A stretch of DNA of 15,513 nt from an uncultured bacterium (lineage in GTDB: Bacteria > Spirochaetota > Leptospiria > Turneriellales > Turneriellaceae): the NCBI GenBank assembly GCA_938038265.1, contig CALHRC010000079.1, forward strand, positions 1-15,513, given 5' to 3'. The notes beneath the pieces are model-generated. The model saw only the letters and a program-made list of their open reading frames with translations. It did not search any database and was not told the DNA's origin. The translations under genes and the position numbers were made by a program. This document shows positions 21 through 10,235 of the stretch, in pieces; positions within the stretch are counted from its first letter, which is position 1, and the number at the start of each line of letters is the position of its first letter.

Positions 21-83
21 CCATACCCTGTTCAGGAATTCCTGAACAGGGGGACGGTATCACCCCCGGCAGGGGCTGGTTAG
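21..83. repeat. Repeat element copy A. Perfect 22-bp palindrome CTGTTCAGGAATTCCTGAACAG (28-49), then a G5/C5 hairpin (GGGGG-acggtatca-CCCCC) and a CCCC-GGCA-GGGG hairpin, ending GGTTAG.
   Basis: Read directly. The palindrome is its own reverse complement. A near-identical copy lies at 268-327 in direct orientation. Confidence 0.7.
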
Positions 84-170
84 TAACTCAAAACAAATAT
101 AACGTTAGATAGATTTATATTTTGCTATAGTTATGGCACCCCCAGTAGATGGGGAATTCTCCAACAAGTA

Positions 171-223
171 CCGTCCGACAGGGGGTGTCGGATGGCGCTT
201 TTGTCCGACACTTTGTGTCGGAC
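171..223. repeat. Tandem hairpin pair built from four alternating-orientation copies of GTCCGACA/TGTCGGAC. Hairpin 1: CCGTCCGACA-GGGGG-TGTCGGATGG (171-195). Hairpin 2: GTCCGACAC-TTT-GTGTCGGAC (203-223, 9-bp perfect stem).
   Basis: Inverted repeats read directly. No U-run follows, so this is not a typical intrinsic terminator. It looks like a protein-binding-site array or a structured RNA/DNA element. Confidence 0.6.
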
Positions 224-267
224 GCGTCTTTGGCCAAAAAGCCCGCGGGGGTAAGGGATGGGTTTTT

Positions 268-327
268 CCAATCTGTTCAGGAATTCCTGAACAAAACAGA
301 GTTACATCCCCCCAGCAGGGGGCTTAG
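268..327. repeat. Repeat element copy B. Palindrome CTGTTCAGGAATTCCTGAACA (273-293), then a CCCCCC-AGCA-GGGGG hairpin, ending GCTTAG.
   Basis: Direct repeat of 21-83. Palindrome and C/G hairpin are conserved and the spacer has diverged. It is preceded by AGGGATGGGTTTTTCC (254-269), which resembles the 3'-end tandem repeat core. Confidence 0.7.
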
Positions 328-342
328 AACAGCAAAAAATGC

Positions 343-8925: not shown

Positions 8926-10235
8926 TTAGGCTTTGCCGGCGGCGTCACCCGCGCAAAGATAAAATCCACATGTTTCAGAAAAGAAGTAATATCAAATACT
9001 TCATCCCATGCGCTATCGGGAATTGACTTAAGCTCGTCACGTGAACTAAGCCGCTGCCGCAAATCGGGGCCATTGAGATCGGCCCAGACTGCCATGGCCT
9101 CTTGCTGTATGATCTGATAAGCCTCTTCGCGACTGATCTTCACCACCGAGGTCACAGTTAACAAAGCGCGCGACGAAAACAATAAGCCTTTAGTCTGCCC
9201 AAGCACGCGCTTTATATTTTCTTCATGCACCTGCAGGTTAGTTATCACAAATTCCATTTTTTGGAGCATATATTCAAATAGACTAGTAGCATCGGGTAAA
9301 ATCACTCTTTCAGCTCCCGAATGAGAGATATCCCGCTCATGCCAGAGGCCAATGTTTTGCCAGGCAGTCTGCGAATATCCGGCAAGCACCCGCGCTAAAC
9401 CGCAAATTCGTTCACACAAAATCGGATTACGCTTGTGCGGCATTGCCGATGAACCTTTCTGCCCTTTCTGAAATGGCTCTTCAATTTCGCGGCTTTCTGT
9501 TTTTTGCATAAGCCTGATTTCCTGCGCCAGACGCGAGAGGGCAGCAGCACCAAGAGCAAGAGCATTGAGATAATGTGCGTGTCTGTCCCGTGGTACGACT
9601 TGGGTACTGACCGGCTCCGGCTTAAGACCTAACTTACCAAGCACATATTCTTCAAGCTCAGGGGGCAGCTGGGAATAAGTGCCGACAGCCCCTGAAATTT
9701 TACCAAATTTTATGTCTTCAAGTGCAGCAGCGAAACGATCACGGCCTCGCTGCAGTTCAGTATAATAACCTAATAGTTTAAGACCTAAAGTTGTAGGTTC
9801 CGCATGAACGCCATGAGTGCGACCAACAACCGGTAGTTTTTTGTATTTAACCGCCTGACGATATACACTGGCCAACAGAGAATCCCAGGCGGAAAGAATC
9901 CATCCCCCCGCCTCTGCTAACTGGTACGAGAGCGCAGTGTCAACCACATCCGAAGAAGTTAGGCCATAATGTACATGCCGGGAAGCCGGGCCAATATTTT
10001 CAGCCATGTTGGTAAGAAAAGCGATAACGTCATGGTGGGTTTCGTTTTCAATTTCTAAAATTCTTTCAACAGAAAAATTAGCTTTTAAGCGGATGTTATT
10101 CATTTCATCATCACTAATTTGCCCTAATGAATGCCAATATTCGCAGGCAAAAATTTCAATATCTTTCCAGATTTCAAATTTTCTCTGCAGCGACCACAAA
10201 TGCCGCATTTCTTTTGAGGAATAGCGATCTATCAT
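8922..10235 (-). CDS. purB: Adenylosuccinate lyase, 437 aa.
   Basis: N-terminus MIDRYSSKEMRHLWSLQRKFEIWKDIEIFACEYWHSLGQIS, as I recall typical of the short (~430 aa, B. subtilis-type) PurB. Fumarate-lyase family length. Confidence 0.9.
   Translation of the reverse strand: MIDRYSSKEMRHLWSLQRKFEIWKDIEIFACEYWHSLGQISDDEMNNIRLKANFSVERILEIENETHHDVIAFLTNMAENIGPASRHVHYGLTSSDVVDTALSYQLAEAGGWILSAWDSLLASVYRQAVKYKKLPVVGRTHGVHAEPTTLGLKLLGYYTELQRGRDRFAAALEDIKFGKISGAVGTYSQLPPELEEYVLGKLGLKPEPVSTQVVPRDRHAHYLNALALGAAALSRLAQEIRLMQKTESREIEEPFQKGQKGSSAMPHKRNPILCERICGLARVLAGYSQTAWQNIGLWHERDISHSGAERVILPDATSLFEYMLQKMEFVITNLQVHEENIKRVLGQTKGLLFSSRALLTVTSVVKISREEAYQIIQQEAMAVWADLNGPDLRQRLSSRDELKSIPDSAWDEVFDITSFLKHVDFIFARVTPPAKPN

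Follow-up and report, generated by a model that had tools for sequence, protein, structure and literature searches.

A candidate lineage-specific palindromic repeat unit in the spacer upstream of a glutathione operon in an uncultured spirochaete

Hairpin-rich intergenic repeats are well known as a kind, and the element described here, which lies at the left end (positions 21–330) of a 15,513-nt contig from an uncultured spirochaete of the family Turneriellaceae (CALHRC010000079.1, assembly GCA_938038265.1; the whole contig is hereafter called the window), resembles several of them in part. Its own sequence family is absent from Rfam, from the collections searched and from the literature searched. 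The repetitive extragenic palindromic (REP) sequences and bacterial interspersed mosaic elements (BIMEs) of proteobacteria are extragenic, comprise a few palindrome types in fixed order and alternating orientation, have hairpins able to stop or stabilise transcripts and are absent from the orthologous spacers of relatives, and in all these respects the present element is like them. It differs in that there is no evidence here of tens to hundreds of copies, in its loop-less perfect palindrome of 20–26 bp, in its period of 245 bp, which is larger than BIME units, and in its host, a spirochaete lineage with no such family in the literature searched. A search of that literature for the motifs and for repeats of Leptospira returned nothing relevant.

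MITEs (miniature inverted-repeat transposable elements) of the Correia, ERIC and RUP type offer another parallel. They are 100–300 bp long, non-coding and intergenic, are present or absent among relatives and may carry promoter-like and terminator-like signals, and a second copy of our element, described below, has a long palindrome-capped inverted repeat of this kind. Unlike MITEs, however, the element shows no terminal inverted repeats of defined ends, no target-site duplication and no known cognate transposase, and its copies appear tandem or permuted, not dispersed. Tandem intrinsic (Rho-independent) terminators share with it two G+C-rich stems of 9–10 bp, short loops and T-runs on one strand; here, however, the T-runs are short (3–4) and lie 3–5 nt from the stem, the arms of both hairpins are identical, which ordinary terminators do not need, and the flanking palindromes are unexplained by terminators alone. 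The fimS-type switches, which are known invertible promoters, and the attC arrays of integrons are similar in that identical short repeats bracket about 220 bp with transcription signals and that imperfect palindromes are repeated in direct order, but in the present case the neighbourhood encodes no recombinase or integrase, every repeat has a symmetry of its own, the RYYYAAC and GTTRRRY motifs are not paired and the alternative orientation was not observed.

The reading that we favour, tentatively and with a probability of about 0.4, is that the element is a lineage-specific, non-coding unit of palindromic repeats, akin to REP/BIME sequences or MITEs, which a variable spacer acquired and in which part of it was then repeated. 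The unit would be about 245 bp long and made up of the palindrome, a C-run/G-run module, an AT-rich stretch, a small hairpin, two terminator-like hairpins and a G-rich arm; the window would hold one full unit (28–272) and the first 55–60 bp of a second (273–330). Positions 1–27 are unrelated to the equivalent stretch containing the G-rich arm (246–272), and the array therefore seems to begin at about 21–27. The original prediction, made from the sequence of the window, had described terminal direct repeats around an internal dyad array, an architecture that is better rendered as about 1.25 tandem units. Tandem Repeats Finder reported no array, the roughly 1.25 diverged units being too few for one. 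The gain or expansion would have taken place in the variable spacer that directly precedes the promoter of an operon, leaderless in layout, which joins a small open reading frame (sORF) to glutathione genes. The observations behind this reading are the anatomy of the element, its non-coding nature, the failure to detect it at the orthologous site of the relatives examined and a permuted, diverged second copy.

The most conspicuous part of the element is the 21-mer CTGTTCAGGAATTCCTGAACA, which a repeat search of the window found in identical form at 28–48 and 273–293. No third site for its 20-nt core exists in the 15.5 kb when up to six mismatches are allowed, and two matches of this core were obtained in none of 200 shuffles. 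On the left, the shared 21 nt are contained in a perfect palindrome of 26 bp (CCCTGTTCAGGAATTCCTGAACAGGG, 26–51; −21.3 kcal/mol as an RNA hairpin). On the right, the perfect part is 20 bp (274–293), as this copy terminates in A and so reads CTGTTCAGGAATTCCTGAACAA; the left copy alone is the full palindrome. The perfect 22-bp palindrome first proposed for both repeats has thus to be reduced to the shared 21-mer, the 22-mer itself being present in one copy only. The two palindromes form a perfect 21-nt inverted pair but equally a direct pair, and the sequences flanking them on the outside show no inverted correspondence.

Exactly 14 nt after each palindrome core begins a C-run/NGCA/G-run module (63–75 and 308–322). 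The modules and their flanks (ATC-C5-NGCA-G4-CT..TTAG.AAC) are significantly similar between left and right (0/2000 shuffles), whereas the 14-nt spacers that separate palindrome and module are without similarity (3/14 by inspection) and the likeness of the A-rich DNA further downstream of both modules is not significant. What had been read as 60-bp direct repeats is a pair of conserved modules with unrelated DNA between them and A-rich DNA of no significant likeness behind. Likewise, the C5-NGCA-G5 hairpin assigned to each repeat exists as a module in both, but the left one, taken as a lone hairpin, folds no better than shuffled sequence (z = −0.66). On the + strand, the left module with its tail (TATCACCCCCGGCAGGGGCTGGTTAGTAAC) spans 58–87 and is followed by an AT-rich spacer (84–133, 20% G+C) in which an extended −10-like TGcTATAGT can be recognised by eye at 123–131. 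This motif could act as an internal promoter from which transcription would start near 138; it was noticed by eye and was not reported by a consensus promoter scan. A third, weaker C-run/G-run module (CACCCCCAGTAGATGGGG, 137–154, + strand) forms a 5-bp hairpin (−9.0 kcal/mol, z = −2.3), its similarity to the others reaching a p of about 0.01–0.016, and is followed by a remnant of the palindrome's right half (GGAATTCTCCAACAA, 153–167, 80% identity to 280–294). Directly left of the right palindrome, on the + strand, lies the G-rich arm (GGGGGTAAGGGATGGGTTTTTCC followed by AAT, 247–272), whose start is overlapped by a CCCGCGGG palindrome (242–249), located after the hairpins as had been noted at the outset. 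The right end of the element is a degenerate C-rich arm with the right C-run/G-run module (AAACAGAGTTACATCCCCCCAGCAGGGGGCTTAGAAC, 294–330, + strand). Three motif types, each in 2–3 copies, are clustered in 330 bp of intergenic DNA, and such extragenic clustering of a few short imperfect-palindrome types is what is found in REP/BIME sequences. A longer duplication that would include the promoter (76–136 against 323–380) or the sORF (133–267 against 377–562) was not significant.

The centre of the unit is occupied by two adjacent hairpins on the + strand. Hairpin 1 (CCGTCCGACA-GGGGG-TGTCGGATGG then CGCTTTT, 171–201) has a stem of 10 pairs at 171–195, and hairpin 2 (GTCCGACAC-TTT-GTGTCGGAC then GCGTCTTTGG, 203–233), with a stem of 9 pairs at 203–223, is its tandem 30-nt duplicate; the duplicated units lie at 173–201 and 203–231, and the hairpins are trailed by GCGCTTTT or GCGTCTTT. 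The two adjacent 9–10-bp stems of the original prediction were therefore recovered, and of the four GTCCGACA copies that it counted three are exact, the fourth (186–193) carrying one mismatch, from which a G–U pair results on the + strand only. Its description of the element as strongly structured also held: RNA folds of 1–380 are far more stable than those of shuffled sequence (+ strand, z = −7.2; − strand, z = −7.7), and 1–330 contains the window's strongest inverted repeats with short loops.

Hairpin 1 is the top terminator-like site of the window and passes the terminator scan with 10 pairs, six of them G–C; with a G+C-rich stem-loop followed by a U-run, it has the sequence features of a putative intrinsic terminator. 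Its energy is −17.4 kcal/mol on the + strand against −14.2 on the − strand, and it contains one G–U pair that exists on the + strand only and becomes a C–A mismatch on the − strand. In hairpin 2 (stem −15.4 kcal/mol) only UCUUU follows after GCG, which makes it borderline as an intrinsic terminator. T-runs follow both hairpins on the + strand only. The restriction of the G–U pair and the T-runs to this strand indicates that the two hairpins are oriented to act on rightward transcripts. The region 171–233 can also refold into one long hairpin, in which the inner arms pair together and the outer arms together, because the four GTCCGACA arms are mutually complementary; this crosswise hairpin is the minimum-energy fold of 136–236. 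Its geometry is attenuator-like, but with no evident leader peptide or ligand element.

A comparison of hairpin 1, hairpin 2 and the corresponding hairpin of the second copy, and of the left, right and second-copy palindromes, revealed no covariation in the stems. Compensatory changes, proposed as a test of whether the stems are maintained, do not occur in any of the available instances: the arms are identical or compatible with identity, and the loops and spacers vary. Although the copies are few and this is only suggestive, identical arms with varying loops would be the pattern of sequence-specific protein recognition or of recent copying, and the lack of compensatory change would not be that of a compensated RNA structure.

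The second copy was detected through a protein. The ORFs at 133–327 and 149–346 had been suspected to be artefacts of the repeat structure, and they behave as such: they have no Pfam match and no gene call, their exact sequences are absent among about 15 billion collected proteins, as were all nine mechanical ORFs of the element in exact look-ups, and the one relative matches in several frames. This relative, P0060 (61 aa, E = 1.7e-4), is the sole truly similar one for ORF 133–327 among 1.84 billion representatives; three other matches were discarded as repeat or Cys-rich proteins, judging from their sequences. Its alignment with the window passes through frames +3, +1, +2 and −2, and this switching of frame indicates that it is the DNA and not a reading frame that is conserved. 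The region 1–330 is non-coding, and P0060 itself is a spurious ORF.

P0060 is encoded on a separate 3,830-bp NCBI/ENA contig and, used as a search query, recovered itself only. Its residues 1–17 resemble window positions 192–242 (hairpin 2 and its tail; at best 44/51 nt identical by back-translation), and residues 13–34 resemble 229–294 (G-rich arm and palindrome; 82% amino-acid identity, at best 60/66 nt). The remainder follows the DNA after the left, not the right, palindrome (ending in WGLLVTQKLYYVA against GWLVTQNKYNVR, with the stop codon at the same place), so that P0060 is colinear with 192–293 and then with 49–112. Residues 36–50 are compatible with the G-rich arm in reverse complement, with a score of 38 in the best case where shuffles gave 22.8 ± 3.2 (0/500); in frame −2, this reverse complement recurs on the opposite side of the palindrome in the P0060 copy. 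As far as back-translation permits, the arms of hairpin 2 are compatible with P0060 and the codons of the loop differ. A diverged version of the unit thus exists elsewhere, its modules circularly permuted relative to the window. There the palindrome caps a longer inverted repeat, and the C5...G5 hairpins of the window in part represent the decayed C-rich arm of this repeat. The join in P0060 between the left flank of the right copy and the right flank of the left copy is one predicted for a junction between tandem units or on a recombination circle.

The orthologous site was examined in Leptospiraceae relatives, represented by a metagenome-assembled genome and Logan assemblies (L044–L050) of about 80% protein identity. 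The glutathione operon and its leaderless layout are also present in relatives (in L044, within 9788–9985, the sORF begins 5–6 nt after the −10 hexamer), whereas the orthologous spacers of L044–L050 consist of 120–480 bp of unrelated DNA, in which local alignments of 1–345 stay at chance level and no motif of the element is present. L052 is closer, the gene next to the spacer being 83% identical in nucleotides; the 96 nt readable upstream of its sORF correspond to a span that in the window takes in the right palindrome and module, and neither is present. In relatives further removed the neighbouring genes are others, and related motifs are absent. The upstream neighbour varies between relatives: yqeY in L044 (region 9281–9830), nothing but AT-rich DNA in L046 (region 1–488) and a hexapeptide-repeat transferase in L048 (region 2–900). 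These differing neighbours, together with the absence in relatives, place the element at a synteny breakpoint and mark it as lineage-specific. The comparison with related genomes, which had been put forward as a test of mobility, thus points in the direction of a mobile or repeat element, none of the relatives examined having a detectable copy at the orthologous site. A reconstruction of the empty site against L052 was not significant (p about 0.1), and the spliced alignment overfits.

To the right, the element occupies the spacer upstream of the operon promoter; its left end is 20 nt from the contig end. The sigma-70-like promoter TTGAAC-17-TATAAT, reported by a promoter scan at 343–371 on the + strand, flanks the element and lies outside it. 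The leaderless 55-aa Pro/Gln-rich sORF (377–544) begins 5 nt past the −10 element and is followed by genes for a 272-aa protein without a Pfam domain, a small Grx/GST_N protein, BolA, Grx, GshA, GshB, GST and an ABC transporter. The small Grx/GST_N-like gene is an 80-aa ORF with a GTG start (1460–1702, Pfam E = 7e-17) and matches an extra small Grx gene called at the equivalent place in relatives. On the − strand, an ATG at 24–22 abutting the left palindrome opens a frame (MDYHNRCG...) that runs off the contig, and on the + strand a frame open from position 3 stops at a TAG-TAA double stop (81–86); either could be the end of a neighbouring gene beyond the contig. Positions 1–27 carry no placeable coding or repeat signal. 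No contig reaching left of position 1 was found via identical proteins. An independent Logan contig (L002, from ERR9287621, apparently of the same study) starts at 317, inside the right C-run/G-run module, a break that could be due to low coverage, to a variant or to a repeat boundary.

For the window in its entirety, Rfam gave 0 matches at gathering score and, at E up to 10, only chance-level matches in 1–700 (best E = 0.29, 20 bits against a 100-bit cut-off). An ARAGORN scan for tRNA and tmRNA found none, and three patterns searched in viral contigs retrieved nothing related. An exact 18-mer occurs at 41 or more loci of the genome collection, the matches listed being chance occurrences in coding DNA or unrelated terminators. 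The statement that the element belongs to no recognised repeat family is upheld by the lack of any Rfam, phage, plasmid or attC match. The absence of a transposase was likewise confirmed among the proteins of the 15.5-kb window, in which a Pfam/protein scan found no regulator, recombinase or integrase either. Readings of the region as a sigma-54 promoter or as DnaA boxes gave no convincing match by eye, and a Fur-box-like match (13/19) at 9–27 is background, with equals inside ORFs at 782, 6269 and 8794.

With regard to function, the invariant palindromes may be recognition sites of a dimeric protein, either the enzyme that propagates the unit or a DNA-binding protein of the host. The + strand hairpins at 171–233 would stop transcripts arriving from the left before the operon promoter at 343–371, including any that start at the AT-rich stretch of the unit itself, and would thereby insulate the operon. 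Termination is the one function that the observations make plausible.

Several observations weigh against a propagated repeat unit. One further copy was detected, solely through a translated ORF, and it may represent this very locus as found in a different strain and not a second locus. The exact 21-mer is absent from viral contigs and, in JGI metagenome contigs, matches one unrelated high-G+C terminator only; blastn of 1–345 and tblastn of P0060 against plasmids and phages gave chance matches, and about 100 kb of fetched Leptospiraceae loci contain no related motifs. No short direct repeat that could represent a target-site duplication exists between 21–27 and 328–342, neither terminal inverted repeats of defined ends nor a transposase were shown in the 15.5 kb of genome, and the DNA to the left of the element lies beyond the contig. 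Palindromes so perfectly conserved would suit an operator just as well, and termination may be weak because the T-runs stand 3–5 nt away from the stems. The MITE-like remnant suggested at the outset gains from the lack of a detectable counterpart at the locus in relatives, the breakpoint and the diverged copy, but defined-end inverted repeats, a target-site duplication, many copies and a cognate transposase, which are the defining features of a MITE, were not shown.

Some of the same features can be read as a small-RNA (sRNA) gene, an explanation that we consider rather unlikely. The promoter at 123–131 would give a start near 138 and an RNA of 63–95 nt ending at about 200 or 232, with a 5′ hairpin (140–154), an unpaired C/A-rich stretch (155–170) and one or two intrinsic terminators (171–233); the flanking palindromes would be regulator sites or the borders of duplicated units, as in tandem sRNA genes. 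Trans-acting sRNAs have the classic shape of hairpin, single strand and terminator, and this order fits it; among terminator-like sites of the window hairpin 1 ranks first, both hairpins are specific to the + strand, and the stem and T-rich tail of hairpin 2 are compatible with conservation in P0060. However, the promoter was recognised by eye, has no −35 and went unreported by the scan, Rfam gave no match even at E up to 10, relatives have nothing comparable at the locus, the arms are identical in all copies with no compensatory changes, and GCG separates the T-runs from the stems. The identity of the arms and the variation of spacers and loops would be expected of protein sites over RNA stems, and an array of operators for one or two dimeric proteins could account for them. 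The 20–26-bp palindromes, perfect and loop-less, would be its A sites, and two 8-5-8 inverted repeats, GTCCGACA-N5-TGTCGGAY (GTCCGACA-N5-TGTCGGAC), would be its B sites, with centres 30 bp apart, that is, about three helical turns; under their control would be the promoter of the operon and, beyond the left end of the contig, a divergently transcribed gene that possibly starts at the − strand ATG at 24–22. Such an array is nevertheless unlikely: there is no regulator gene in the 15 kb to the right and no other A or B site in the window even with 4–6 mismatches, relatives with the same operon and leaderless promoter layout are without such sites, and the distance from the A sites down to the nearest start points, about 95–100 bp, is large for repression.

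The contig end and the synteny breakpoint, the related copy on another short contig and the lack of the region in the relatives examined could also mean that a larger element, mobile or integrated (a prophage, island or transposon), extends beyond the left contig end and that only its edge is seen here, the palindromes, promoters and terminators being a regulatory or end region beside the core genome. We regard this as quite improbable, given that no similarity to phage, plasmid or viral-contig records was detected and that positions 1–27 hold no coding or repeat signal that could be placed. Very improbable in our view is a site-specific recombination cassette, in which the 21-bp cores would be crossover sites for excision, duplication or inversion of the 223–224-bp promoter/terminator segment between them, so that read-through into the operon would be switched. 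The perfect 21-nt inverted (and direct) repeat does bracket a segment in the size range of invertible promoters, and the P0060 junction is the one expected of a circle or a tandem product between cores. On the other hand, this junction is not an inversion product, no recombinase is encoded within 15 kb, L002 breaks at 317 and not at a core boundary, and the flanks past the core are also homologous (the C-run/G-run module), which argues for duplication rather than integration at a foreign site. The core motifs of an integron attC are missing as well: a single GTTRRRY (104–110) has no same-strand RYYYAAC in 1–400, and the cores are unpaired. The attachment site among the earlier proposals thus fails in its integron form; for other attachment sites, as for the operator and the sRNA, the evidence points neither way. 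It is hardly probable, finally, that the 245-bp unit is a self-contained, reiterable transcription module of promoter, small structured RNA and double terminator on which a recombinase acts at the 21-bp cores; if it were, cells or strains would differ in the number of units and hence in the dose of the sRNA or in how far transcription reads through into the glutathione operon, and the P0060 junction would be a direct trace of recombination.

If the repeat-unit interpretation is true, free-living Leptospiraceae, for which the literature searched catalogues no intergenic palindromic repeats, would possess a family of them that has not been described before. Knowledge of it would be of practical value for annotation, as the element breaks assemblies and yields spurious ORFs. 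It would also provide a natural case of a repeat that sets terminators before the promoter of a stress operon, and the finding would carry more weight if the palindromes prove to be sites of recombination or of a regulator.

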